Below, one piece after another: positions 1,806-61,028 of a DNA stretch of 64,000 bases (position 1 is the first letter of the stretch; each line of letters opens with the position of its first letter). Below the pieces are notes generated by a model. It saw only the letters and a list, made by a program, of their open reading frames with translations. It did not search any database and was not told the DNA's origin. The position numbers and the translations under genes are program-made. The stretch is from positions 1 through 64,000 of the IMG/VR virus record IMGVR_UViG_3300020595_003017. One strand, written 5' to 3'. The stretch comes from a virus.

Positions 1806-4800
1806 ATGGTGCGGATAGCACATTTCGGGGATACCCACATCAAAAATCTGAAATACCATTACGAGTATCGTAAAGCATTTGAGGAAATTTACCAGACTCT
1901 GCGAGAGCAGGATGTAGACTACATCGTCCATACTGGCGACTTGGCTCACACAAAGACACAACTCTCACCCGAGTACTTTGAACTGGCCACAGACTTCCTA
2001 AAGAACTTGGCAGACATCGCCGAGACCCATATCATTCTTGGCAACCATGACGGCAACCTGCGGAACAGCAGTCGCCAAGATGCCATCACTCCAATTGTTG
2101 ATGCCCTTGACCATGCAAGCCTGATGCTTCACAAGTATTCGGGCGAAGTTCAATTAGAGGATGACCTGACTATTAACGTTTTATCAATCTTTGACGAGAC
2201 CAATTGGCAAGACCCAACTGATCCAGAGGCTATCAACATTGCCCTTTACCACGGAGCAATTAATAATAGTAAAACCGACATGGGTTGGATTATGGATCAT
2301 GGCGACCACGACATCAAAGTATTTGATAAGTTTGATTACGCTATGTTGGGTGACATCCACAAGACCAATCAGATGCTCAACGAAAGTGGCACCATCCGCT
2401 ATTGTGGCTCTACTATCCAGCAAAATCACGGCGAGACAAACGACAAGGGCTTTTTGATTTGGGATATTAAAAGCAAGACTGAGTTTGATGTCAAGCATCA
2501 TCTTGTAAAGAATATTAAACCTTTTACGACAATTGAGTTGACTTCCAAAGGGAACATGCCTAGAGACCTAGACATCCCAGAAGGAGCACGACTTCGTGTG
2601 GTAACTCACTACAAAGTTTCACTAGACAAGATCCGTCGGGTTATGGATATTGCTAAGAGCAAGTACAAACCTGAGAGCCTATCTTTTGTCAACAAGGCTG
2701 GACTTAAGCGTTCCAGCGTGGATGTTGATGGATTGGGCAGCACAGAGAACTTGCGGGACCAACAAGTCCAAGAGCGACTTATCCGGGAATACTTAAAAGA
2801 ATATGAACCCGACGACAAGACCCTAGAAAGAGTTTTCCAACTCAACTCACGCTACGATGCTCGGGTCAACGGCGAGGATGCCTCTCTGCGAAACGTGGAA
2901 TGGTCCCTTAAAAGTATGCAATGGGACAACCTCTTCAACTACGGAGAAAACAACACCATCAACTTTGAGAAGCTGAACGGCGTTGTGGGTGTCTTTGGCA
3001 AGAACTATTCAGGCAAGAGTTCTGTAATTGATAGTGCGTTATATACGATTTACAACTCTATTAGCAAGAACAATCGCAAGAACCTGAACATCATCAACCA
3101 GAATAAGCAGGCTGGCTGCGGTCGTGTTGAAATTGATATTGACGGCAAGGCCTACATCATTGAGAGAAAGTCGGAGAAGTATAAAAAGAAACTTCATGGC
3201 GAAGAAACCGACGAAGCAAAAACCGATGTAGAGTTTTCAATGATTGACCCAGCAACAGGTGAAGAGACGAGTCTTAACTCGCTTGACCGCAACGGCACCG
3301 ACAAAGAGATCCGTAAAATCTTCGGAACCATTGATGACTTCTTACTTACGAGCATGTCCAGCCAGATGGGTGCGATGACTTTCATCAACGAGGGTTCAAC
3401 CAAGCGCAAGGAAATCTTAGCCAAGTTCTTGGACCTTGACCAGTTTGAGAAGAAGTTCCGAGCCTCCAAGAATGATAGCATTGAGACCCGTGCTCTTCTC
3501 AAAAAACTGGAAGATAATACTTTTGATGAAGATATTACGCAACTCGTCGGACAAATGTCCGATAATGAAAAGGACCGAGAAACGCAAGAAAGGAAATGTA
3601 AGAAACTAACTAACCAGTTAGAAACCATTTCCGAGCGAGTAAAAGAGATTGATGGACTTTTCGCATCTGCCCCTGTTGAGCTTATTAATATTAGAAAAGA
3701 GACAGCAAGACTTGCGGCAGCAGAGCAAAAATCCTCAGACCTCCATCTCAAATCAGCCCAGACCAAAAAGCAAAAGAAAGATGTTCTGGCGCAAGCTGAA
3801 GTCTTAAAGAAACTTTTAGATGCTACTGATGTTGATTCACTCCGAACCCAAATTTCTCGTTGTGACGAATTACAAAAAGACCTCACAACTATTGAGAACC
3901 AGATTAAGCTGGAAGAAAACAATAGAAGCACTTACGAGAAGAAGCTCAGTGCTCTTGATGAAGTACCTTGCGGTCCTGACTGTGGTCTCCGCAAATATAT
4001 CAAAGATGCTTATGAAGCTAAAGAACTTCTCCAAGAGGTAAAGAAGACTCTCACTCTTTTGAAGCGCCGTCATGACAAACTCACCGACAAGTTGGAAGAG
4101 ATGGATGTGGAAACGCTGGAGAAAGAAAAGAAACTTTATAAAGATAGGGACAAGGAATATGCTGACCTGTCTACAGAGGGCACTAACCTTGATTTGCTTT
4201 TGGCGCAAACCACAAACAAACTTCACCTCCTTACAAATGAGGTGGCAAGCATCAAAACCAAGATTGAAGTTTACGAACTCAACAAGGAAGCAATCGAGAA
4301 CCGAGAAGGTCTCATCAAGGAGCAGGACGACCTAAAAGAAAATGCCATCAAGATGGAGAGTAATATCGCCATTTGCGATTCTAAAGTACTTGCTCTTGTC
4401 AAACAACATGGCGGTATTGAAACCCAGATTGCAAACATCAAAGAGAAGCAGCAAGAACTGGAAGACCTGCGGACGGAGTATGCTGCCTATGATTTGTTTA
4501 TGCGGTGTACTCACCCCAACGGTATCAGTTATGATGTGGTGAAGCGGATGCTTCCTCTCATCAACGAAGAGGTTAGCACGGTGCTGGCCAACGTCACCGA
4601 CTTTGATATTTTCTTTGAGGCAGAAAAGAATAAGTTAGACATCTTCATCAAGCATCCAAAGTACGAAGCACGACCTTTAGAGATGGCTTCTGGCGCAGAG
4701 AAGACGCTGGCAGCAATTGCCATTCGCATTGCCCTGACCAATGTGTCAACACTACCAAAATCAGACATTATGATTATGGATGAGCCGGGCACAGCGTTGG

Positions 4801-4958
4801 ACGCCGAAAACCTTGAAGGCTTTATGCGAGTGATGGAAATGATTAAGGGCTACTACAAGACTGTGCTTTTGATTACTCACTTGGATAGTCTCAAAGATAT
4901 TGCCGATATGACTATTGACATTGAACGTCAAGATGGGTATGCTTATGTCTCCCAGTAA
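1806..4958 (+). CDS. sbcCD: Fused SbcD-SbcC (Mre11/Rad50; T4 gp47+gp46-like) recombination nuclease/ATPase
   Basis: Metallophosphoesterase motifs HFGDTH, HTGDLAH, GNHD, YHG, GDIH; Walker A GKNYSGKSS; long coiled coil with central CGPDC hook-like motif; signature ASGAE; Walker B MIMDEP. Confidence 0.92.
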   Translation: MVRIAHFGDTHIKNLKYHYEYRKAFEEIYQTLREQDVDYIVHTGDLAHTKTQLSPEYFELATDFLKNLADIAETHIILGNHDGNLRNSSRQDAITPIVDALDHASLMLHKYSGEVQLEDDLTINVLSIFDETNWQDPTDPEAINIALYHGAINNSKTDMGWIMDHGDHDIKVFDKFDYAMLGDIHKTNQMLNESGTIRYCGSTIQQNHGETNDKGFLIWDIKSKTEFDVKHHLVKNIKPFTTIELTSKGNMPRDLDIPEGARLRVVTHYKVSLDKIRRVMDIAKSKYKPESLSFVNKAGLKRSSVDVDGLGSTENLRDQQVQERLIREYLKEYEPDDKTLERVFQLNSRYDARVNGEDASLRNVEWSLKSMQWDNLFNYGENNTINFEKLNGVVGVFGKNYSGKSSVIDSALYTIYNSISKNNRKNLNIINQNKQAGCGRVEIDIDGKAYIIERKSEKYKKKLHGEETDEAKTDVEFSMIDPATGEETSLNSLDRNGTDKEIRKIFGTIDDFLLTSMSSQMGAMTFINEGSTKRKEILAKFLDLDQFEKKFRASKNDSIETRALLKKLEDNTFDEDITQLVGQMSDNEKDRETQERKCKKLTNQLETISERVKEIDGLFASAPVELINIRKETARLAAAEQKSSDLHLKSAQTKKQKKDVLAQAEVLKKLLDATDVDSLRTQISRCDELQKDLTTIENQIKLEENNRSTYEKKLSALDEVPCGPDCGLRKYIKDAYEAKELLQEVKKTLTLLKRRHDKLTDKLEEMDVETLEKEKKLYKDRDKEYADLSTEGTNLDLLLAQTTNKLHLLTNEVASIKTKIEVYELNKEAIENREGLIKEQDDLKENAIKMESNIAICDSKVLALVKQHGGIETQIANIKEKQQELEDLRTEYAAYDLFMRCTHPNGISYDVVKRMLPLINEEVSTVLANVTDFDIFFEAEKNKLDIFIKHPKYEARPLEMASGAEKTLAAIAIRIALTNVSTLPKSDIMIMDEPGTALDAENLEGFMRVMEMIKGYYKTVLLITHLDSLKDIADMTIDIERQDGYAYVSQ

Positions 4959-6070: not shown

Positions 6071-6506
6071 TGCTTGTGTTTATGGTCAAGATGTAAGATG
6101 GAATGCGACTAATCGTCGTGACCAAGAAATTCAACACTGGGCTGAGTCCAACGGGTTTGAACTCGTGCCTGTGTGCCCAGAGAACGAATTATTTGGTACA
6201 CCCAGGAAAGCAATTAGGTTGCGAGCCATCGATGGGGAGATAAAAGGTTTTGCAGGAAAAGATGAGGTATACGGAAAACTAAAAGATAAATGCAAAGAAA
6301 TTTCTAATAGACACAATGATATCGTTGGTTTTATTGGCATAGCAAACTCTCCATCTTGTGGATTATCTGCTGGCGTTAAGGATCTTGGCTCGACAATCAA
6401 AGCACCTATGCATCAAGCTCTTGATTGTCCAACTACAGAGATAAGTTCCATGCGGAGCGAAAAAAACAGAGACTTATTTTTAAAGAGAATAATGAAAAAC
6501 CTATGA
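6054..6506 (+). CDS. DUF523 / TudS-like (thiouracil desulfidase family) Fe-S protein
   Basis: MKILISACVYGQDVRW, PVCPE and SPSCG are the three conserved Cys motifs of DUF523. Confidence 0.8.
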   Translation: MKILISACVYGQDVRWNATNRRDQEIQHWAESNGFELVPVCPENELFGTPRKAIRLRAIDGEIKGFAGKDEVYGKLKDKCKEISNRHNDIVGFIGIANSPSCGLSAGVKDLGSTIKAPMHQALDCPTTEISSMRSEKNRDLFLKRIMKNL

Positions 6507-6706
6507 AGCCTGGAGATCTTGTTAGGTTTAGGGAGTGTTTGTTTCATGGTACTCCCAAAGTGTACACTCCATGGAAAATTGGTTTACTATTGGAATATTT
6601 TTCGTGGACTAAAATAGCCACAATAATGCACGATGGAAAAGATTATCGCATTAGAGCATCAGACGTTCAATTACATAAGCCGTCGAAAAGGTTTAAAGAT
6701 CACTAA
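6503..6706 (+). CDS. Small MKPGDLV-family (SH3/KOW-like) protein, isolated copy
   Basis: Starts MKPGDLVRF...KIGLLL; same pattern as the array at 55.7-59.0 kb. Confidence 0.65.
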   Translation: MKPGDLVRFRECLFHGTPKVYTPWKIGLLLEYFSWTKIATIMHDGKDYRIRASDVQLHKPSKRFKDH

Positions 6707-42437: not shown

Positions 42438-43508
42438 ATGGGAAACAAAGCTGGAAACAGCCTTGTAAGTGATTTGCGCAGCGAATTAAACAAGGCAGCT
42501 AAAGAAAATATTGCATATGACTTGCATGGGGATAACCCAACAGACGTCAAGACTTGGATTTCCACCGGCTCAACGCTTTTGGATTATATTATTTCCAACC
42601 GCCGAGACGGGGGGATCCCTGTTGGCAAGCTCACCACGATTGCTGGTGAATCTGCTAGTGGCAAGAGTCTTGTTGTCACTCAGATCCTGGCCAACTGTCA
42701 GAAGATGGGAGGCGTTGCTGTTTATATTGATACGGAGAACGCAGCATCCCCAGATTTTATGGAACAACTAGGACTTGACACAAAGAACAACTTTATGTAT
42801 GTTCAACCTGGCACGATTGAAGAAGTGTTTGAAACTATTGAACGCCTCATCGGACTCATCAGGGAAAAAGCACCTGACCGCTTAGTCTGTATTGTGTGGG
42901 ACAGCGTTGCTGGAACCCCAGTCAAAGCCGAGGTAGAAGGGGACTATGATCCCAACAGTCGTATCGGTCTGACAGCCAAGGCACTAGCCAAAGGTATGCG
43001 GAAAGTAACGGAGACACTCGGCAAAGAGCAGATCGCCATGGTTTTCACCAACCAGTTGAAGACCAACATCGGCGTGATGTTTGGAGACAACCGAGTGGAG
43101 CCAGGTGGCAAGGCTCTACCCTATCATGCTTCCAGTCGTATCTGGCTGACCCAGCACAAGGGAAAAGCCAACGGTCAGATTCTAAACGAGAAGAAGCAGG
43201 TCATTGGTTTCCATACCAGTGCCAAGACGATGAAGTCTCGCTTCGGACCATCACCAAGGAGTTGTCAGTTTGATGTATTATTTGACCTTGCTAACGACCG
43301 TGTTGGCGTTGATGATGAAGGTTCCTGGCTTAGTGCTATCGCTGGCACGCCTGGCTGTATTCGCAGCGGCGCTTGGTATACTATCAATGTTGACGGGGAA
43401 GATAAAAAGTTCCAAAGTAAAGACTTTTCGAAGCTCTTAGAAGATAAGAAGTTTAAGGAAAGAGTTCTTGACATCCTAGAGGATGAGTGTAGAATAGGTA
43501 AGAAGTAG
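42438..43508 (+). CDS. recA: RecA/UvsX recombinase
   Basis: ISTGSTLLD, GESASGKS, YIDTENA, IVWDSVA, FTNQLK, EPGGKALPYHAS. Confidence 0.93.
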   Translation: MGNKAGNSLVSDLRSELNKAAKENIAYDLHGDNPTDVKTWISTGSTLLDYIISNRRDGGIPVGKLTTIAGESASGKSLVVTQILANCQKMGGVAVYIDTENAASPDFMEQLGLDTKNNFMYVQPGTIEEVFETIERLIGLIREKAPDRLVCIVWDSVAGTPVKAEVEGDYDPNSRIGLTAKALAKGMRKVTETLGKEQIAMVFTNQLKTNIGVMFGDNRVEPGGKALPYHASSRIWLTQHKGKANGQILNEKKQVIGFHTSAKTMKSRFGPSPRSCQFDVLFDLANDRVGVDDEGSWLSAIAGTPGCIRSGAWYTINVDGEDKKFQSKDFSKLLEDKKFKERVLDILEDECRIGKK

Positions 43509-51119: not shown

Positions 51120-51332
51120 ATGAAAGTCGGAGATCTTGTCAAGTTCACCAATCGCAGTCACAGCCTTTATCACAAGTATTCCAAGGGTGTAGGTCTTGTT
51201 ACAGAGATTGATCACATTGCTAAATACAACAGAGGCTCCCGCCAAGAATATCTTGGAGCTAAGGTCACAGTCCAGTTCCCAGAACTAGACAAACCATCAG
51301 TCGTTACAGAATTTTCACTACAAGTAATTTAA
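51120..51332 (+). CDS. MKVGDLV-family small protein
   Basis: MKVGDLVKF...GVGLV...VTVQF...LQVI. Confidence 0.7.
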   Translation: MKVGDLVKFTNRSHSLYHKYSKGVGLVTEIDHIAKYNRGSRQEYLGAKVTVQFPELDKPSVVTEFSLQVI

Positions 51333-54772: not shown

Positions 54773-54964
54773 ATGGAACGATGTAAACTATTTAAAACTA
54801 AGAAGACCTATCGCATACCGGTCGGATTAACGGGGGTGGTTCTAGATACTTTAGAATCATTCCCTCAACTTAAAGTTGTTGCCATTAAGTATGATGTTAG
54901 CGGTTGGAAGTTGTCTGTGATAGCCGAGAAAGATCTTGAATATTTAGAGGACCAAAATGATTGA
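54773..54964 (+). CDS. Small SH3-like hypothetical protein
   Basis: GLTGVVLD...VAIKY...IAEKDLEYL. Confidence 0.5.
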   Translation: MERCKLFKTKKTYRIPVGLTGVVLDTLESFPQLKVVAIKYDVSGWKLSVIAEKDLEYLEDQND

Positions 54965-55052
54965 CGGAAAGAAATTAATTAAAAACGAAAACGATTGTTA
55001 CAATTGTGGCTGCAATTTAAAACCAGTCTGTCCAGACTATGAAGGAGACAAG

Positions 55053-55517
55053 ATGGAAGTAAGAGTAGAGCGACTTCACGAAAACGCTAAGCTGCCTGTG
55101 CGGGCACACCCGACAGATGCCGGCATGGATTTATTCTTTTGTCCAGAGCCTAAGCCGGAATTAAAAAATCAAATCGAAACAGTCCTTCCTTTTGGATCGT
55201 CAGTGATTCCCACAGGATTAAAGATTGAAGTTCCAGAAGGGTACATGCTGGAGATTAAAAACAAATCTGGAATCGCCTCAAAGCGTGGGCTGTTAGTTGG
55301 TGCCTGTGTTGTAGATCGTGGGTACACAGGAGAAATCTTTGTGAACCTTCATAACGTGACACACAGAAACCAAACTATCCACGATGGAGATAAGGTTGCC
55401 CAAGCTGTCTTCGTCAAAGTTGACACCGATATTAAATTAGTGGAAACAGAAAAGGGTATCTACGACGAGGACACTAGTCGTGGCGACGGCTCTTTAGGAT
55501 CCACAGGTGACAGATAA
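55053..55517 (+). CDS. dut: Trimeric dUTPase
   Basis: AGMDL, IPTGL, NKSGIA, VVDRGYTGEI, RGDGSLGSTG; start set at 55053 (AAGGAG SD); an in-frame Cys-rich extension from 54957 is possible. Confidence 0.92.
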   Translation: MEVRVERLHENAKLPVRAHPTDAGMDLFFCPEPKPELKNQIETVLPFGSSVIPTGLKIEVPEGYMLEIKNKSGIASKRGLLVGACVVDRGYTGEIFVNLHNVTHRNQTIHDGDKVAQAVFVKVDTDIKLVETEKGIYDEDTSRGDGSLGSTGDR

Positions 55518-55611: not shown

Positions 55612-55668
55612 ATAAAACTTGACAGACTCTCTTTCCATGATAATATAAGATATAAGGAGAGAGTTATG
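55612..55668 (+). repeat. Early promoter-RBS cassette, copy A
   Basis: AAAACTTGACA-N16-TAATATAAG...AAGGAGAGAGTTATG; repeated at 56921 and 57334. Confidence 0.8.
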
Positions 55669-55893
55669 CATGTCGGTGACAAAGTAAAACTTACAGGCAT
55701 CACCCAGCACGGCAAAAATCGTGTTCGTGAACAGAGTGATGTCTGGGAGGTTATCCGCATGAGTCCCACAGTTTCATTTAAAACATCTGCCTCTGGTCCG
55801 TTTATGTTGTTGCAGGCCACCAAGGGTATCCATATGCGCTGGGTTTCCACCGTCAACGACGACAACTTTTCAGTAGAGGTTATTGATGAGTAA
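55666..55893 (+). CDS. Array protein 1 (MHVGDKV...EVIDE)
   Basis: ORF track; family motif. Confidence 0.75.
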   Translation: MHVGDKVKLTGITQHGKNRVREQSDVWEVIRMSPTVSFKTSASGPFMLLQATKGIHMRWVSTVNDDNFSVEVIDE

Positions 55894-56095
55894 GAATGAG
55901 TGGCGTAAAGACTTGAAGGTCGGGGACCTCGTGATGATGAAGAGCGGCGGGATGGCTATCCTTACAGAGGTGTTCTTTCGGTTTCCAGAAACTGACCCAT
56001 CCTATCCCCATATAAAGATGATTTATTGTGATGACAACACACCAGGCAGTTGTAGCGCCTGGCGAGTAGAGGAACTAATCAATGCAAGTCGGTGA
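55886..56095 (+). CDS. Array protein 2 (..LKVGDLV...EELINASR)
   Basis: ORF track; family motif. Confidence 0.75.
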   Translation: MSKNEWRKDLKVGDLVMMKSGGMAILTEVFFRFPETDPSYPHIKMIYCDDNTPGSCSAWRVEELINASR

Positions 56096-56255
56096 TTTGG
56101 TAAAACGACACGAAGGCTGGCAAGGCTGGAAGCGTCAGCAACTCGGGCTCGTAGTAAATGTAGACCGAGCCGTTATCAGAGTTCAGTGGTCTGGCGACTA
56201 CGGAACATTTTCTCACCCTATCACGTCGCTGGAGGTGCTCAATGAAAGAAGGTGA
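56082..56255 (+). CDS. Array protein 3 (MQVGDLVKRHEG...RVQW...LEVLNERR), not in track
   Basis: Read by hand; 57 aa. Confidence 0.75.
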   Translation: MQVGDLVKRHEGWQGWKRQQLGLVVNVDRAVIRVQWSGDYGTFSHPITSLEVLNERR

Positions 56256-56394
56256 TTTGGTTCGCATGGATGGCCAAACGGGAGTTATTGTTCTCGCTTG
56301 GGGCGTCATGGATGTTGTAGAGGTGCTCTGGGACGATGGGGAAACCAGAGGTCAGAACACCTGCGAGTTGGAGTTGCTCAATGAAGCCCGGTGA
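56242..56394 (+). CDS. Array protein 4 (MKEGDLVRMDGQTGVIV...EVLWDDG...LELLNEAR), not in track
   Basis: Read by hand; 50 aa; GGAGGT SD. Confidence 0.78.
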   Translation: MKEGDLVRMDGQTGVIVLAWGVMDVVEVLWDDGETRGQNTCELELLNEAR

Positions 56395-56545
56395 TTTGGT
56401 AAAATATAAAGGCAACGGAAAATGCTATCTGGTATCCGAGGTACGAAAAATTAAAGGTGAGGTAAGGTACTTCCACTTGGACACCTTCCATCCCCAAAGA
56501 GTTTTCTATTCAGATGATGTGAAGGTGATTAATGAAACCAGGTGA
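56381..56545 (+). CDS. Array protein 5 (MKPGDLVKY...VKVINETR)
   Basis: 3' part of track ORF 56336..56545. Confidence 0.75.
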   Translation: MKPGDLVKYKGNGKCYLVSEVRKIKGEVRYFHLDTFHPQRVFYSDDVKVINETR

Positions 56546-56720
56546 CTTGGTAAGAATCTCAGATTGGGATTCGGTTGGGGGTTGGAACCCCATCGGTCTT
56601 GTTTTATCTTATCCTGAAGTAAAGAATCACGGGACAACCTCTGTCCTTGTTGACTGGCTTGAATCGCCCGACACAGAATATTACTCAGTCCATCATTTGG
56701 AAATCATCAGTGAAGGCTGA
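56532..56720 (+). CDS. Array protein 6 (MKPGDLVRI...IGLV...VDW...LEIISEG)
   Basis: ORF track. Confidence 0.78.
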   Translation: MKPGDLVRISDWDSVGGWNPIGLVLSYPEVKNHGTTSVLVDWLESPDTEYYSVHHLEIISEG

Positions 56721-56931
56721 CTTTGAATATCAACTTGGCGACCTCGTATCTTTCAACCCAAGGCGACTGACGGAAGAATATATTAATGATGTTGTCCTGA
56801 CTGGCGTTGTAATCAAGCAGCGTTTAGTTTTCACTGCGGACAATAAGTTCTTGGTGCGAACCCCCGAAAGAGATTACTGGGTTTCAAGACCACGCCTAAC
56901 TTTACTTTCGAGGGCACAAAATAAAACTTGA
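56710..56931 (+). CDS. Array protein 7 (..YQLGDLV...TGVVI...LTLLS)
   Basis: GTG start overlapping the previous stop. Confidence 0.7.
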   Translation: MKADFEYQLGDLVSFNPRRLTEEYINDVVLTGVVIKQRLVFTADNKFLVRTPERDYWVSRPRLTLLSRAQNKT

Positions 56932-56978
56932 CAAACACTCTATCCATAGTAAGATAAGTTGTAAGGGAGAGAGTTATG
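56921..56978 (+). repeat. Early promoter-RBS cassette, copy B
   Basis: AAAACTTGACA-N16-TAAGATAAG...AAGGGAGAGAGTTATG. Confidence 0.8.
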
Positions 56979-57131
56979 TCGGTTCAAGACCATATTGAAA
57001 ATATTCTCAACGCCGAAGGTCAAGAGTGTCTTGACGCTTGGTATGTTGCCATCAACGAGTATCCCCAAAATGCTATGGAAATTCACGATGTGGTTGTTGA
57101 CCACCTCGTTGAAAATACCTTCTTGTATTAA
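56976..57131 (+). CDS. 51-aa acidic hypothetical protein (not array-like), not in track
   Basis: MSVQDHIENILNAEGQECLDAWY...; directly behind cassette B. Confidence 0.7.
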   Translation: MSVQDHIENILNAEGQECLDAWYVAINEYPQNAMEIHDVVVDHLVENTFLY

Positions 57132-57142
57132 GGGAGAGAGTA

Positions 57143-57337
57143 ATGATTACGGCAGCAGGTTTCGGGATGGGCGCTCTAGTCAACTTTGAGTGGAAGCTGG
57201 ACAAAGAGTTGGGTATGATTGTGCGTCAAAGCAGAGGATACTTTTGGATGGTCAAACGTCTTAGCGACGGCAAGAACCTACTCGTCCCCGAGCGGGATAT
57301 GGAAGTGCTCAGTCCAGCCAGGCCAGCGGCTATTTAA
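57143..57337 (+). CDS. Array protein 8 (..FGMGALV...LGMIV...MEVLS)
   Basis: SD GGGAGAGAG; family motif. Confidence 0.7.
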   Translation: MITAAGFGMGALVNFEWKLDKELGMIVRQSRGYFWMVKRLSDGKNLLVPERDMEVLSPARPAAI

Positions 57338-57390
57338 AACTTGACAAGCACCCTAGACGTGGTAATATAAGGTACAAGGAGAGAGATATG
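57334..57390 (+). repeat. Early promoter-RBS cassette, copy C
   Basis: AAAACTTGACA-N16-TAATATAAG...AAGGAGAGAGATATG. Confidence 0.8.
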
Positions 57391-57633
57391 TTGTACGGAA
57401 AAGAGTTAGCCCAATCAATCCAGAAACGCTGTAAGATTCAGCCAGGGATGCTGGTCAAGTCCTCGGCGGGAACCGAGGTAAACAAAATTGCCCTCGTTGT
57501 CCGGTTGTCTCCAGCCTGTGAGTTTGACCGAGATTATGAAGGATCAGAGGATCACATCTTTTATATCTGCGAGCCTTGTGATGGAACGCCAGCCTTCTCG
57601 GACTATGTAACGAATATGGAACAGGTCTCATGA
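57388..57633 (+). CDS. Array protein 9 (..IQPGMLV...IALVV...MEQVS)
   Basis: ORF track. Confidence 0.72.
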   Translation: MLYGKELAQSIQKRCKIQPGMLVKSSAGTEVNKIALVVRLSPACEFDRDYEGSEDHIFYICEPCDGTPAFSDYVTNMEQVS

Positions 57634-57803
57634 AACTCGGAACCCTAGTCCAGTTCGCCGCCTACGGGGCGGTCATGGATACTGGCTATGTTTCAAAGTA
57701 TGATGAGGACCCAAAATTCATGTGGGTAGAGTGTGTGAAGATGGGACCTCAGCGGGTCAGCAAAGACAGCACGATGTTGGAGGTGCTAAGTGAAGCCGGG
57801 TGA
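57630..57803 (+). CDS. Array protein 10 (MKLGTLVQF...TGYV...LEVLSEAG), not in track
   Basis: Read by hand; 57 aa. Confidence 0.75.
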   Translation: MKLGTLVQFAAYGAVMDTGYVSKYDEDPKFMWVECVKMGPQRVSKDSTMLEVLSEAG

Positions 57804-57987
57804 TTTAGTCCGCATCAGAAAAACCTCAATTGACCACATGTCGGCCAATTGGTTTATCTGGCACGCAGAACACAAGACCCCGCTGGTTTTGATTAAAGAA
57901 CTAAACAAAAGTTATTGGAATGTACTGAAGCCTGATGGCGAGACTGTGTTCATTCACAAAAGCCACTTGACGAAGAGAATGTATTGA
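57790..57987 (+). CDS. Array protein 11 (MKPGDLVRI...)
   Basis: GTG start; GGAGGT SD. Confidence 0.75.
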   Translation: MKPGDLVRIRKTSIDHMSANWFIWHAEHKTPLVLIKELNKSYWNVLKPDGETVFIHKSHLTKRMY

Positions 57988-58178
57988 TGGAACACAAATT
58001 ATATAATATCGGAGACTTGGTAGCGGTTGCTTCCAACCGAGTGCTTGGCATCATCACCAAGTCCAACTACTGGGCTCTTGATGAATATCTCGGTGGTGAG
58101 ATTGAGATGGTGGATGTGATGTTCGGCTCCTCGGTTTCCAAGCAATACCCAGTTCAATATCTGGTGGAGATGAGATGA
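57987..58178 (+). CDS. Array protein 12 (..YNIGDLV...LGII...VDVMF)
   Basis: ORF track. Confidence 0.72.
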   Translation: MEHKLYNIGDLVAVASNRVLGIITKSNYWALDEYLGGEIEMVDVMFGSSVSKQYPVQYLVEMR

Positions 58179-58396
58179 CCAGAGTTATCACATACCGACC
58201 CGAAGTCGGCGACATCGTGAAGTATCATATGTTTGGCTGCCGTGATAAGGTCGGCGTAGTTTTGGGAATAGAAAAAAAAGAAATGAACTACACATCCTGT
58301 AAGGTAGTTGAGGATGGTTGCTTAGTGTCTTTTAATAATAAGCCCCCCGTGTGGGAACCATTATATTCTTTGGAAAAGGTTGATGGTAAATACTGA
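58175..58396 (+). CDS. Array protein 13 (..PEVGDIV...VGVVL...LEKV)
   Basis: ORF track. Confidence 0.72.
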   Translation: MTRVITYRPEVGDIVKYHMFGCRDKVGVVLGIEKKEMNYTSCKVVEDGCLVSFNNKPPVWEPLYSLEKVDGKY

Positions 58397-58589
58397 TTTA
58401 AAAATAGGCACACTGCTCCGAGTGAGAGAGCACTGCCGGAAAAATATCACCATCCGCAACAACGGCGAGTATGGTATTTTGGCACTAAGTGCTAACGGAA
58501 AATATATTACACACGATGTATTATTTCCCAACGGAACCAGATGTATTTATATGCCCTTGAATTGGGAGGTTGTTAGTTATGCGGGATAA
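58383..58589 (+). CDS. Array protein 14 (..LKIGTLL...YGIL...WEVVS)
   Basis: ORF track. Confidence 0.7.
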   Translation: MVNTDLKIGTLLRVREHCRKNITIRNNGEYGILALSANGKYITHDVLFPNGTRCIYMPLNWEVVSYAG

Positions 58590-58836
58590 GATGTGGGAAG
58601 TTCAACAGCCCGGAACTCTTTTGCGAGCACGCAGTAGCCATCAATATGGTAAACTGGCTTTAGTCCTTCAAGAGGCTTATGCTGGACCTACGCCAAGCAA
58701 CGGCTATCCTCCCCGCCAGTATGTGAAGATGCAGTGGCTTGCCACTGGCGAGCGGTTTGAAGAAATGTTAACAAATGCTCATAATTGTTTTGACATTGTG
58801 GGTTCCTGTGATACACTAGGACCTGAGGAGAACTGA
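58579..58836 (+). CDS. Array protein 15 (..QPGTLL...LALV...MQW...FDIV)
   Basis: ATG at 58579 after GGAGGT SD. Confidence 0.7.
   Translation: MRDKMWEVQQPGTLLRARSSHQYGKLALVLQEAYAGPTPSNGYPPRQYVKMQWLATGERFEEMLTNAHNCFDIVGSCDTLGPEEN
58790..58817 (+). promoter_or_regulatory. Internal sigma70-type promoter
   Basis: TTGACA-N16-TACACT with TG extension; GAGGAG SD downstream. Confidence 0.55.
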
Positions 58837-59039
58837 TGGCTATCACACCCAAGTTCAAGCCAGGGCAACTGGTAGAGTATGCTGACCCTGACTGGTCACT
58901 TGTTGGTCTGGTCAAGTCTACACAATTCGCCCGTCGCCGAGGTGACCCAGTTTTTGTGCTGGTCCAGTGGTGTGGAAAGTATCGGAACAATGAAGAATAT
59001 ATTCCCCAATCAGAACTTAAACTAGTGGAGGGTTCATGA
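58836..59039 (+). CDS. Array protein 16 (..FKPGQLV...VGLV...VQW...ELKLVEGS)
   Basis: ORF track. Confidence 0.75.
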   Translation: MAITPKFKPGQLVEYADPDWSLVGLVKSTQFARRRGDPVFVLVQWCGKYRNNEEYIPQSELKLVEGS

Positions 59040-59563
59040 ATATTTTTGCTATCGAAGGCGATGAAGAGACAGGACAGATTGACTGGGAGAAGTCAGCACA
59101 GTCTCAAGACAACTTGCGGGTCGTCAAGATGATCCTAGAGTCTTGTCAGATCATGTCAACAGTTATCAACGAGCAGGGGCTCAAAGCTCCCTACCGTTCG
59201 TTCAATCCCAAGCACCCATCGTGCCTATGGGCTGCTGAGTCGGCAAGTAACTATATGAATCTTGCTTTGCACTGCCAGGCTATGATTGATGAGTACGAGC
59301 ATCGCTTCAACAAGACTCACAAGTGCCAAGCGGTTCTCAAGACTCTTATTGAGTTGTTTGACCCTGGCTTGTTTCCATCCATGGAGTGTACCCCGCTCCG
59401 CCTGGCCATGCCTGACGAGTTTCGATCAGACAATCCTGTAGTATCTTACCGCAGGTTCTATGCTTCTAAACCACGTTTGCGCTACCCAGTTGACAAAATC
59501 CCACAATGGGTATATGATTATCGTACTGAACCATTTGAAGTAGTTGAAGGAGAAAAAAGATGA
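59036..59563 (+). CDS. denV: Pyrimidine-dimer DNA glycosylase (T4 endonuclease V/DenV family)
   Basis: MNIF, VVKMILESCQIMS, HPSCLWA, LAMPDEF, VVSYRRFY. Confidence 0.82.
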   Translation: MNIFAIEGDEETGQIDWEKSAQSQDNLRVVKMILESCQIMSTVINEQGLKAPYRSFNPKHPSCLWAAESASNYMNLALHCQAMIDEYEHRFNKTHKCQAVLKTLIELFDPGLFPSMECTPLRLAMPDEFRSDNPVVSYRRFYASKPRLRYPVDKIPQWVYDYRTEPFEVVEGEKR

Positions 59564-59727: not shown

Positions 59728-59998
59728 GAAGCATTTAAAGAAACTTAAGCGAGCCAAAAAGAAAAAGAAAGATAAAAAGGTTTCCGAAGAGCAGCAGCGA
59801 CATCTAGCTAAACAGATGAACATGTTTGATAGGTTGCCTGATTCTTGTTCGGCTTGCAAAAAAGAGTTCCCTAAGACCCGCCAGGCACACACAACCTGGA
59901 AGGTCGTGGTGAGGACAGAAAAACAGCAAGTGAGACTTTTTTGCCCAGAGTGTCAGAAATTAGCCAATAAGTTGGCGGAGGAACAAAATGAAGTTTAA
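59720..59998 (+). CDS. Basic Zn-ribbon hypothetical protein
   Basis: Lys-rich N-terminus; CSAC...CPEC. Confidence 0.65.
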   Translation: MSKKHLKKLKRAKKKKKDKKVSEEQQRHLAKQMNMFDRLPDSCSACKKEFPKTRQAHTTWKVVVRTEKQQVRLFCPECQKLANKLAEEQNEV

Positions 59999-61028
59999 AG
60001 AGGCTATCACCTACGATGATATGTTACTAGTGCCTCAGTACAGTGATATTACGAGCAGAAGTGAAGTTGAGATCGGCAATAGGATGGGACACAGGCATCT
60101 CAAGATGCCGATTATCGCTTCCCCGATGGACACTGTGTCGGAGCATGAAATGGCAATCGCCATGTATCGTGCCGGAGGCATGGCTGTTCTTCATAGATAT
60201 AATACTATTCAAGAACAAGTAAGCATGGCAGAAAAAGTCACACAAGTGTCAAACTGGTCGGGACAGGTGGCCGCTGCCGTTGGTGTGACGGGCGATTTCA
60301 TCGAGCGTTCCGAGGCTTTGATCGCAGCAGGTGTTGATGTTTTGTGCATTGATGTGGCTCATGGTCATCATATTTTAGTAAAAAAAGCTCTTGAGCAATT
60401 GCGAAACGAATATGATAATCATATTTACATCATCGCAGGAAACGTCTGCACGCTGGAGGGTATTAACGATGTTGCTGATTGGGGGGCTGACGCTGTACGG
60501 TGTAACATTGGTGGCGGCTCCATTTGTTCTACTAGGACTGTCACAGGCCACGGTTTACCCGGCCTCCAAACGATCTTCGACTGCGCAAGAACAGACCGCC
60601 AAGTCTCGATCATCGCAGACGGCGGCATCAAAACCTCGGGAGATATTGTTAAAGCTTTAGCAGCCGGCGCAGATTTTGTAATGTGCGGCTCTTTATTAGC
60701 AGGCACCACCGAAAGTCCAGGAAAAGTAATTCACCTGCCTGACAATAACCGAGTAAAAGAATATAGAGGGATGGCCTCCAAAGACGCCCAACTGGACTGG
60801 CGCAGCAAATCATCCACCCCAGAAGGCGTGGCGTCTTATATCCCATTCAAGGGTAGCGTCTTAGATATTTTGACAGACCTGAGCGGAGGTATCAAGTCTG
60901 GATTTTCTTACAGCGGCGCTCGGAATTTATCAGAACTACAACACAAGGCGGAGTGGGCGAGGCAAACTTCTGCCGGAACCCATGAAAGTAGCACTCATAT
61001 TTTTTCTCAAGAAGGGAAACAAAAATAA
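59988..61028 (+). CDS. guaB: IMP dehydrogenase / GMP reductase family (no CBS domains)
   Basis: YDDMLLVP, IIASPMDTV, IDVAHG, IAGNV, GGGSICSTR, IIADGGI, YRGMAS, PEG. Confidence 0.88.
   Translation: MKFKEAITYDDMLLVPQYSDITSRSEVEIGNRMGHRHLKMPIIASPMDTVSEHEMAIAMYRAGGMAVLHRYNTIQEQVSMAEKVTQVSNWSGQVAAAVGVTGDFIERSEALIAAGVDVLCIDVAHGHHILVKKALEQLRNEYDNHIYIIAGNVCTLEGINDVADWGADAVRCNIGGGSICSTRTVTGHGLPGLQTIFDCARTDRQVSIIADGGIKTSGDIVKALAAGADFVMCGSLLAGTTESPGKVIHLPDNNRVKEYRGMASKDAQLDWRSKSSTPEGVASYIPFKGSVLDILTDLSGGIKSGFSYSGARNLSELQHKAEWARQTSAGTHESSTHIFSQEGKQK

Follow-up and report, generated by a model that had tools for sequence, protein, structure and literature searches.

A 32-nt joint inside overlapping small genes of a hyperplastic region in an uncultured marine T4-like phage

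The gene array and its genomic setting

This work concerns a 32-nt sequence element, the joint, which links consecutive small genes in the first 64 kb of a virus record from IMG/VR (IMGVR_UViG_3300020595_003017, 190,528 bp in full); this stretch of 64,000 nt is referred to as the window. The complete record, which is rated 100% complete by CheckV, encodes a T4-type portal protein, major capsid protein, sheath protein and large terminase, along with a tubulin-like protein and DnaE, and is therefore assigned to an uncultured T4-like myophage, of marine origin. Every gene in the window is on the + strand. About 20 small genes form an array between two conserved anchors, a dUTPase gene on the left (54957-55517; PF00692, 1.3e-16) and a gene of the IMPDH/GMP reductase family on the right (59988-61028; PF00478, 8e-107). 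Gene coordinates are based on the agreement between direct reading of the sequence, a list of open reading frames (ORFs) and a codon-bias-trained gene caller.

The array consists of three sub-operons, each headed by a promoter-like site of the type TTGACA-16-TAATAT. The first of these sites (55619-55646) is in the gap ahead of gene 55666-55893, which codes for 75 amino acids (aa), has a ratio of non-synonymous to synonymous substitution rates (dN/dS) of 0.10 and is not recruited to the GDLV family described below. It is followed by a 69-aa family member with an N-terminal extension (55886-56095), the tail of which, N-A-S-R, is encoded by the beginning of the following gene. The junction concerned (block 1, 56070-56101) has a weaker Shine-Dalgarno (SD) sequence, GAGGAA, with the ATG at 56082 and the TGA at 56093-56095. 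The 57-aa gene entered there (56082-56255; MQVGDLV...LEVLNERR; dN/dS 0.13) is joined by block 2 (56230-56261, no mismatch to the 32-nt consensus) to a 50-aa gene (56242-56394; MKEGDLV...LELLNEAR), and this by block 3 (56369-56400, one mismatch) to a 54-aa gene (56381-56545; MKPGDLV...VKVINETR), for which the start at 56381 is favoured over an upstream ATG at 56336. Block 4 (56520-56551, one mismatch) leads to a 62-aa gene (56532-56720), the product of which is predicted to be a six-stranded SH3-like barrel, and a junction with an 11-nt overlap (56698-56726) leads to the 73-aa gene that closes the first sub-operon (56710-56931).

The second promoter-like site (56928-56955, TTGACA-16-TAAGAT) precedes two small genes that are separated by an 11-nt gap (56976-57131, 51 aa, and 57143-57337, 64 aa). 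The third (57341-57368, TTGACA-16-TAATAT) precedes a pair with a 4-nt overlap (57388-57633, 81 aa, and 57630-57803, 57 aa), then block 5 (57778-57809, no mismatch, GTG start), then three genes linked by overlaps of 1 and 4 nt (57790-57987, 65 aa; 57987-58178, 63 aa; 58175-58396, 73 aa). A degenerate junction with a 14-nt overlap, TTGGAAAAGGTTG-ATG...acTGA (58371-58402), the partners of which are constant in the relatives, leads into the last three small genes (58383-58589, 68 aa; 58579-58836, 85 aa, with an 11-nt overlap; 58836-59039, 67 aa). A gene for a DenV-like pyrimidine-dimer DNA glycosylase (59036-59563; PF03013) closes the array. UV-repair genes were found adjoining such arrays twice, the other case being a UvdE gene that follows a chain of overlaps in an unrelated contig (L032:677-1600).

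The three promoter-like cassettes are nearly identical, consisting of AAAACTTGACAA...TAATAT or TAAGAT, then AAGGGAGAGAG and an ATG, and all of them are located in gaps of the array. Neighbours are lost at gap boundaries about as frequently as at the canonical joints described below, so that these cassettes may represent a second, PeSL-like kind of exchange site (PeSL, promoter-early stem-loop).

Anatomy of the joint

The consensus of the joint is TGGAGGTGnTcA-RTG-AAG-CCn-GGT-GAT-TTG-GT, and by information content, calculated with one representative for each of 34 adjacencies, the conserved block spans positions -12 to +20 relative to the start codon. The SD sequence GGAGGTG occupies -11 to -5, the start codon begins at +1, and the stop codon of the upstream gene occupies +12 to +14, so that the joint is situated wholly within two overlapping ORFs and not in an intergenic space. 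The upstream frame ends in ...L-E-V-L-N/S-E-x-R/G-stop and the downstream frame opens with M/V-K-x-G-D-L-V, each gene being read in the +1 frame relative to its predecessor. As had been claimed from the sequence at the outset, the C-terminal codons of the upstream gene supply the SD, embedded in coding sequence, together with the next start, while the downstream codons GGT-GAY contain the upstream TGA; this arrangement was seen at the joints.

Exact 14-nt overlaps with the preceding gene occur at starts 56082, 56242, 56381, 56532, 57790 and 58383, and 11-nt overlaps at 56710 and 58579. The original prediction had given the same coordinates, every one of which was reproduced, and the three that it had called related are degenerate or one-codon-shorter forms. 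The 56710 joint is a canonical joint minus one codon (GTG-AAG-GCT-GAC); that at 58383 is a degenerate copy in which T-D-L replaces G-D-L and the SD is AAGG; and that at 58579 is a degenerate variant for which the relatives have a 14-nt overlap via AGTGA. The 32-nt pattern matches four times in the window but never in 100 shuffles. In the 190-kb genome, 14-nt overlaps account for 6 of 20 array junctions as against 3 of 233 junctions elsewhere (Fisher p = 8e-6), and the sequences of the latter three are unrelated to the joint.

No promoter-like site was found within any joint, the three that were detected being those in the gaps at 55619, 56928 and 57341. Similarly, folding of 90-nt windows around five joints revealed no hairpin, inverted repeat or terminator stem-loop (fold z-scores -0.67 to +1.15). 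A conserved RNA hairpin that occludes the SD, as in classical coupling, was considered and was not found by folding. From the arrangement of start, stop and SD we infer that the genes of the array may be translationally coupled. GTG starts make up 50% at canonical joints vs 8% genome-wide, an excess that is compatible with coupling of the reinitiation type and equally with a neutral toggle between N and S in the upstream tail.

Gene content and neighbour exchange in related phages

Neither the array nor its 62-aa member has a relative among 50,697 deposited phage genomes (blastn, tblastn), and the best relatives of the DnaE in that set reach at most 32% identity. Related arrays were drawn from IMG/VR, where the C-terminal part of DnaE was used to fetch 31 loci (58-98% identity) together with as much as 10 kb of downstream sequence per locus. 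All are metagenome contigs; their genes were predicted with the same caller as those of the window, and the proteins were then clustered.

The region between the dUTPase and IMPDH-family genes is hyperplastic, with 0 to 27 genes across the 31 contigs. The array is absent in L013 (12886-12926) and L014 (2747-2787), where the dUTPase gene is followed by a 48-nt gap and the IMPDH-family gene; two small genes are located between the anchors in L011 (6200-6638), nine in L007 and up to 27 in L010, where the locus is cut at the contig end. The order of the small genes also varies between contigs. Several accessory genes were observed in or beside the variable region of relatives, namely those for an FtsH-like AAA protease (M41; L004:8097-9938), a class I/II aminotransferase (L016:12921-14171), a D12 adenine methyltransferase (L016:15372-16295), an N6 methyltransferase-like protein (L008:17570-19003) and an MT-A70 methyltransferase (L007:11560-12108).

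The 63 canonical joints represent 34 different family-to-family adjacencies, all with the in-register 14-nt overlap. Genes of the 56532 type are found behind seven different upstream partner families, and those of the 55886 type ahead of seven different downstream partner families, always with the overlap of 14 nt. The 57143 family, which is bordered by gaps in the window, is followed by a canonical joint in relatives. Neighbour pairs are kept in 23% of comparisons at canonical joints, as against 55% at other overlaps and 24% at gaps. Chimeric assembly is made less likely by recombinant adjacencies that were recovered repeatedly, from contigs of separate samples: family f42 is followed by f58 in L004, L005 and L010, the 55886 family by the 56532 family in L006, L016 and L029, and the 57143 family by the 56381 family in L001, L006, L016 and L029. 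It had been claimed that any member of the array could be swapped by recombination at short homology; the sharing of one joint by 34 adjacencies is in line with this claim, while "any member" is an overstatement, as about half of the joints are of other kinds.

Position of the breakpoints

When joints are compared for which both flanking genes are unrelated (1,442 pairs), identity is 57-81% inside the block and 25-30% outside. Pairs that share one flanking gene are 86-100% identical up to the block and random thereafter. For example, L004:5604 and L010:15336 are 98% identical up to +20 and unrelated beyond, L001:7730 and L002:7640 are unrelated to about -1 and then show only two differences in 66 nt, and in L027:4179 and L029:6307 identity begins at +4. 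By change-point likelihood, all 25 distinct events switch within -14 to +23, scattered over the block (about 37 nt) and not at one bond, a result which tells where within the joint the switches fall and is no proof that they fall there.

The only unbiased test is based on the ends of all alignments of at least 88% identity between arrays (539 ends); ends taken at 72% identity or more are blurred by divergence, and the stricter set was used instead. Canonical joints (window -15 to +25) represent 2.5% of the array bases and contain 58 of the 539 ends, a 4.3-fold enrichment (nominal binomial p = 4e-20, the ends not being independent). The enrichment is 2.0-fold at other overlapping joints (6.3% of bases, 69 ends) and 0.9-fold in gaps (4.9% of bases, 23 ends). 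This enrichment, together with the position of the switches, agrees with the expectation, formulated beforehand, that breakpoints in relatives are found at the junctions.

In two further cases (L001:7522 and L027:4330) the left half of the joint, comprising SD, ATG, AAG/CAG and GGT, is grafted onto genes of the 55886 and 57388 types, which normally have a start of their own; the overlap of 14 nt is retained there by a TAA or TAG arising from GGT-AAA or GGT-AGA. Judged from their sequences, both appear to be products of a crossover or join within the overlap itself.

Codon choice within the joint

The original prediction had also anticipated an excess of conservation at synonymous sites of the junctions, and this is what codon usage reveals. 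In the upstream frame, glutamate is encoded by GAG in 28 of 28 cases (genome-wide 0.41) and valine by GTG in 15 of 20 (0.15), for both of which the SD is the likely reason; the two codons together give GGAGGTG, which we take to be the full 7-nt complement of the 16S rRNA 3' end. The downstream glycine codon is GGT in 34 of 34 joints, by definition, against 0.35 in the genome, the likely reason being the upstream stop, and in non-overlapping family members the conserved glycine is encoded by GGA or GGC in 11 of 14. For three further preferences no reason is known: downstream leucine as TTG (18 of 33 vs 0.19), downstream valine as GTA (20 of 33 vs 0.22), and a codon ending in C before the start (19 of 30 vs 0.08-0.22). 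Sites such as TTG and GTA show an excess of conservation although no part in starting or ending translation is known for them. The pattern is consistent with recurrent exchange or gene conversion inside the block, and also with a constraint at the mRNA level that has escaped recognition.

A family of small barrel proteins

The small genes are real protein-coding genes under purifying selection, because the dN/dS values of their interiors, determined with orthologues in the related contigs, are low (0.03-0.40, mostly 0.1-0.2); the values for the flanking dUTPase and IMPDH-family genes are 0.09 and 0.10. Iterated profile searches unite 13 small genes between 55886 and 59039 in one superfamily, and the same profile recruits copies elsewhere in the genome, at 6503, 51120 and 76154. 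Solitary members were observed at 6503-6706 and 51120-51332 in the window and at 76154-76324, 90431 and 90965-91195 in the remainder of the genome, all of them without the 14-nt joint. In the three that were read at the nucleotide level (6503, 51120 and 90431) the conserved glycine codon is GGA and not GGT.

The 62-aa member was modelled with AlphaFold2 from an alignment of 109 sequences (mean predicted local distance difference test score, pLDDT, 89.3), with predicted strands at residues 6-9, 21-24, 29-31, 35-42, 48-52 and 56-60. Its Foldseek neighbours include NdhS/Ssl0352, PsaE, PetP, Tudor, KOW and PWWP domains and SPbeta YorP, with TM-scores of 0.56-0.70 and a best E-value of 0.057. Based on this model, the family is predicted to be a small beta-barrel of the SH3-like class, the resemblance being one of fold class only. 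The comparisons with PDB and BFVD by Foldseek gave the fold class and no functional lead. Of the best 50 BFVD matches, 16 belong to one run of UniProt accessions (A0A516M7xx, MAxx, MBxx), and more if A0A516Lxxx is counted, which suggests at least one deposited virus genome with many barrel paralogues.

The family is uncatalogued: scans against Pfam and PHROG gave no family above threshold and only noise below it, no family of solved structures is matched at the sequence level, and the nearest clusters in the ESM Atlas are viral hypothetical proteins without a Pfam family. When the profile was compared with 1.84 billion representative proteins, 834 matches were obtained at E <= 1e-3. Among the best 150 of these, 79 of the 125 single-domain proteins (63%) end in the tail [NS][EAQ]x[RGW]. 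This tail is what the joint dictates, NESR corresponding to a downstream MKVGD and NEAR to MKPGD. Chains of 14-nt overlaps were found, by independent gene calls, in the contigs of two such representatives, one of which adjoins a UvdE gene, and the same kind of joint occurs in two unrelated contigs, L035, labelled "marine metagenome", and L036, which is from a Tara sample. To judge from these sequences, the joint is a trait of the whole family, and the occurrence of the tail in 63% of the database representatives suggests that the mechanism is widespread in aquatic phages.

Some metagenome proteins (P0003, P0006, P0007 and P0018) are in-frame fusions of two to five barrel copies, the repeats of which open with M or V followed by K-x-G-D; in P0018, two domains are connected via ...LEVVKQ-VKVGDLV.... 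The joint apparently flips between an overlapping-gene state and a fused-domain state.

Recombination functions and origin of the joint

The phage encodes a RecA-family recombinase (42438-43508, + strand; PF00154, 1.7e-44), which may have a UvsX-like role, and a fused Mre11/Rad50-like protein, a candidate end-processing partner (1806-4958, + strand; Metallophos and SMC_N domains). The latter gene is a single ORF of 1050 aa that combines an N-terminal calcineurin-like phosphoesterase of the Mre11 type with an SMC_N body of the Rad50 type; the T4 counterparts are two genes, gp47 and gp46. No match to tyrosine integrases (PF00589) or serine recombinases/resolvases (PF00239) was found in the complete genome, nor were RecT and ERF. 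These results support the claim that the array grows without an integrase. The lack of a hairpin, the dispersed breakpoints, the missing integrase and the presence of the RecA-family and Mre11/Rad50-like proteins favour general homologous recombination over about 30 bp rather than a site-specific process, and RecA-type recombination is presumably the enzyme activity responsible.

We therefore favour a process, which we consider probable, in which the joint is conserved by the superposition of coding and translation constraints and serves as short homology for general recombination. The array is a hyperplastic region of paralogous genes for SH3-like barrels of 50-85 residues, a run of which is linked by the joint. 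Each joint encodes the last beta-strand of the upstream protein and its passenger tail (L-E-V-L-N/S-E-x-R/G), and at the same time carries the 7-nt SD, the start codon, the codons for the strand with which the downstream protein opens (M-K-x-G-D-L-V) and the upstream TGA. Because of these stacked constraints it would remain nearly identical between genes with unalignable interiors, so offering about 30 bp of homology to the RecA-family protein and the Mre11/Rad50-like nuclease of the phage. Crossovers from joint to joint, within one genome or between co-infecting relatives, could then delete, insert, duplicate or reorder whole genes, and as the exchange is in register, every product would keep both frames, the ribosome-binding site and the stop codon.

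Several points weigh against this process. About half of the joints in the array are overlaps of 1, 4 or 8 nt or promoter-bearing gaps, and as these rearrange too, the 32-nt joint is not the sole boundary in use. At 32 bp, the joint is close to the minimum length commonly cited for RecA-type recombination to be efficient. The change-point test is partly circular, since the choice of pairs confines the answer to roughly -23 to +32, and 72% of the alignment ends at 88% identity or more are away from gene starts, where they probably represent divergence and not crossover. The 34 joints are paralogues and not independent samples, so that p-values for codon choice are inflated, and all recombination events are deduced from assembled metagenome contigs.

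An alternative is that the joint is a passive remnant of tandem duplication, with illegitimate joins occurring anywhere and selection retaining those at gene boundaries, as in the Hendrix-type model of mosaicism. The conservation of the MKxGDLV N-terminus in members that do not overlap, which places part of the conservation at the protein level, would agree with such an origin, as would the change of partners at non-canonical boundaries of the array. Illegitimate joins, however, predict variable spacing and new junction sequences, whereas the 34 adjacencies keep exactly 14 nt and the 32-nt block. Canonical joints also keep their neighbours less often (0.23) than other overlaps do (0.55), alignment ends are more concentrated at the former (4.3-fold vs 2.0-fold), TTG and GTA are conserved beyond the needs of SD, start and stop, as repeated exchange predicts, and recombinant joints are suggested to be chimeric between parental joints at polymorphic sites. 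We consider a passive origin unlikely. Mis-joining of strains by assemblers at a short repeat could fake shuffling, all the more as every relative is a metagenome contig and the repeat is common to many genes, but identical recombinant adjacencies in different samples and exact identities between different joints that are usually <20 nt, and so below read length, make such an artefact very improbable.

The array, with promoterless cassettes that share an upstream promoter and a single orientation and are delimited by a repeat, is also what would be expected of a site-specific, integron-like system, in which a dedicated recombinase would cut the joint as an attC-like site. Such a system is largely refuted, and we give it hardly any weight, as the genome, rated complete, has neither a tyrosine integrase nor a serine recombinase, breakpoints are spread over about 37 nt instead of one position, and folding revealed neither a hairpin nor an inverted repeat in the joint. 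It is equally hard to believe that the joints are programmed +1 frameshift sites through which the array is translated as a polyprotein. In favour of such a reading, successive genes are shifted by one frame (+1), the barrel has in-frame multi-domain homologues (the four fusion proteins above), and the joint, like prfB, combines an SD-like sequence with an in-frame TGA. But each joint carries a start codon that is optimally spaced from a complete SD, this SD precedes the stop by about 20 nt instead of preceding a shift site by 3 nt, and no slippery, CUU-U-type or shift-prone codon is found at the frame change. Moreover, GTG and ATG each make up half of the starts, yet the position is always a start codon, and a fixed polyprotein would be incompatible with the free shuffling of the genes.

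Relation to known systems

No published description of the 32-nt joint was found in the literature searched. A "boundary sequence" idea exists for lambdoid phages. By analogy, the closest published concept is the modular shuffling of PeSL cassettes in hyperplastic regions of T4-type phages (Arbiol et al. 2010, PMC2839356; Comeau et al. 2014, PMC4122927). In both cases a T4-like phage has short conserved repeats that are interspersed among small, non-essential genes of its hyperplastic region and would act as preferred sites of homologous exchange, where whole genes are inserted, deleted or swapped with their expression signals kept and without an integrase; as with PeSLs, the joint is repeated in such a region and coincides with the breakpoints of indels and replacements between relatives. 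PeSLs, however, are intergenic elements of about 100 bp with a sigma-70 promoter and a terminator hairpin, whereas the joint has 32 nt, is located inside two overlapping frames without promoter or hairpin, and carries SD, start and stop. For PeSLs, excised mini-circles have been demonstrated with outward-facing PCR. The three promoter-like gap cassettes of the array resemble PeSLs more than the joint does.

The array resembles integron cassettes with their attC sites in having promoterless genes of one orientation, an upstream promoter, a repeated boundary element and free gain, loss and reordering, and differs from them in that no IntI is encoded and the joint is coding sequence, lacks a folded hairpin and shows no fixed breakpoint. 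Relaxed or short-homology recombination has been described as a source of phage mosaicism (Martinsohn et al. 2008, PMC2327257; De Paepe et al. 2014, PMC3945230), and this work makes an exchange at short homology plausible. Here too, short or diverged homology between otherwise unrelated genes would generate mosaics with breakpoints at gene boundaries. Those systems, however, depend on annealing proteins of the Rad52-like or Red type and on sporadic homology, while the phage described here has a RecA-family enzyme in the absence of RecT and ERF, and the homology is systematic at each joint of one gene family.

With coupled overlapping genes of the ATGA or TGATG type the joint shares an upstream stop beside or after the next start, an SD in upstream coding sequence and the lack of intergenic space; it differs in its overlap of 14 nt and in a sequence that is conserved between non-orthologous pairs. 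The +1 frameshift site of prfB differs from the joint, where the SD is about 20 nt before the TGA and a shift-prone codon is missing. At the level of the products, the predicted five- to six-stranded small barrel is reminiscent of SH3-like barrels such as Tudor, KOW, PsaE, NdhS/Ssl0352, PetP and YorP of the B. subtilis phage SPbeta, although the small proteins match no Pfam, PHROG or solved-structure family at the sequence level.

Implications

Phage mosaicism is usually explained by random illegitimate joins that are filtered by selection, or by intergenic linkers such as PeSLs. In the array described here the linker is a dual-coding part of the genes themselves, 32 nt of which secure the reading frame, the ribosome-binding site and the stop whichever two cassettes are joined. 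This would offer a concrete mechanism, open to testing, by which small accessory genes are replaced rapidly although no dedicated recombinase takes part. A large, uncatalogued family of SH3-like mini-proteins is also brought to notice.

More tentatively, and we regard this as a doubtful extension, the joint may be kept because it makes the array evolvable, as an integrase-free cassette system that continually re-assorts small binder-like barrels, possibly host-takeover or counter-defence factors, among co-infecting marine phages. If the joint were selected for evolvability, each cassette would arrive translation-ready in any position, and the over-conserved sites outside SD, start and stop would be a signature of such selection or of constant gene conversion.

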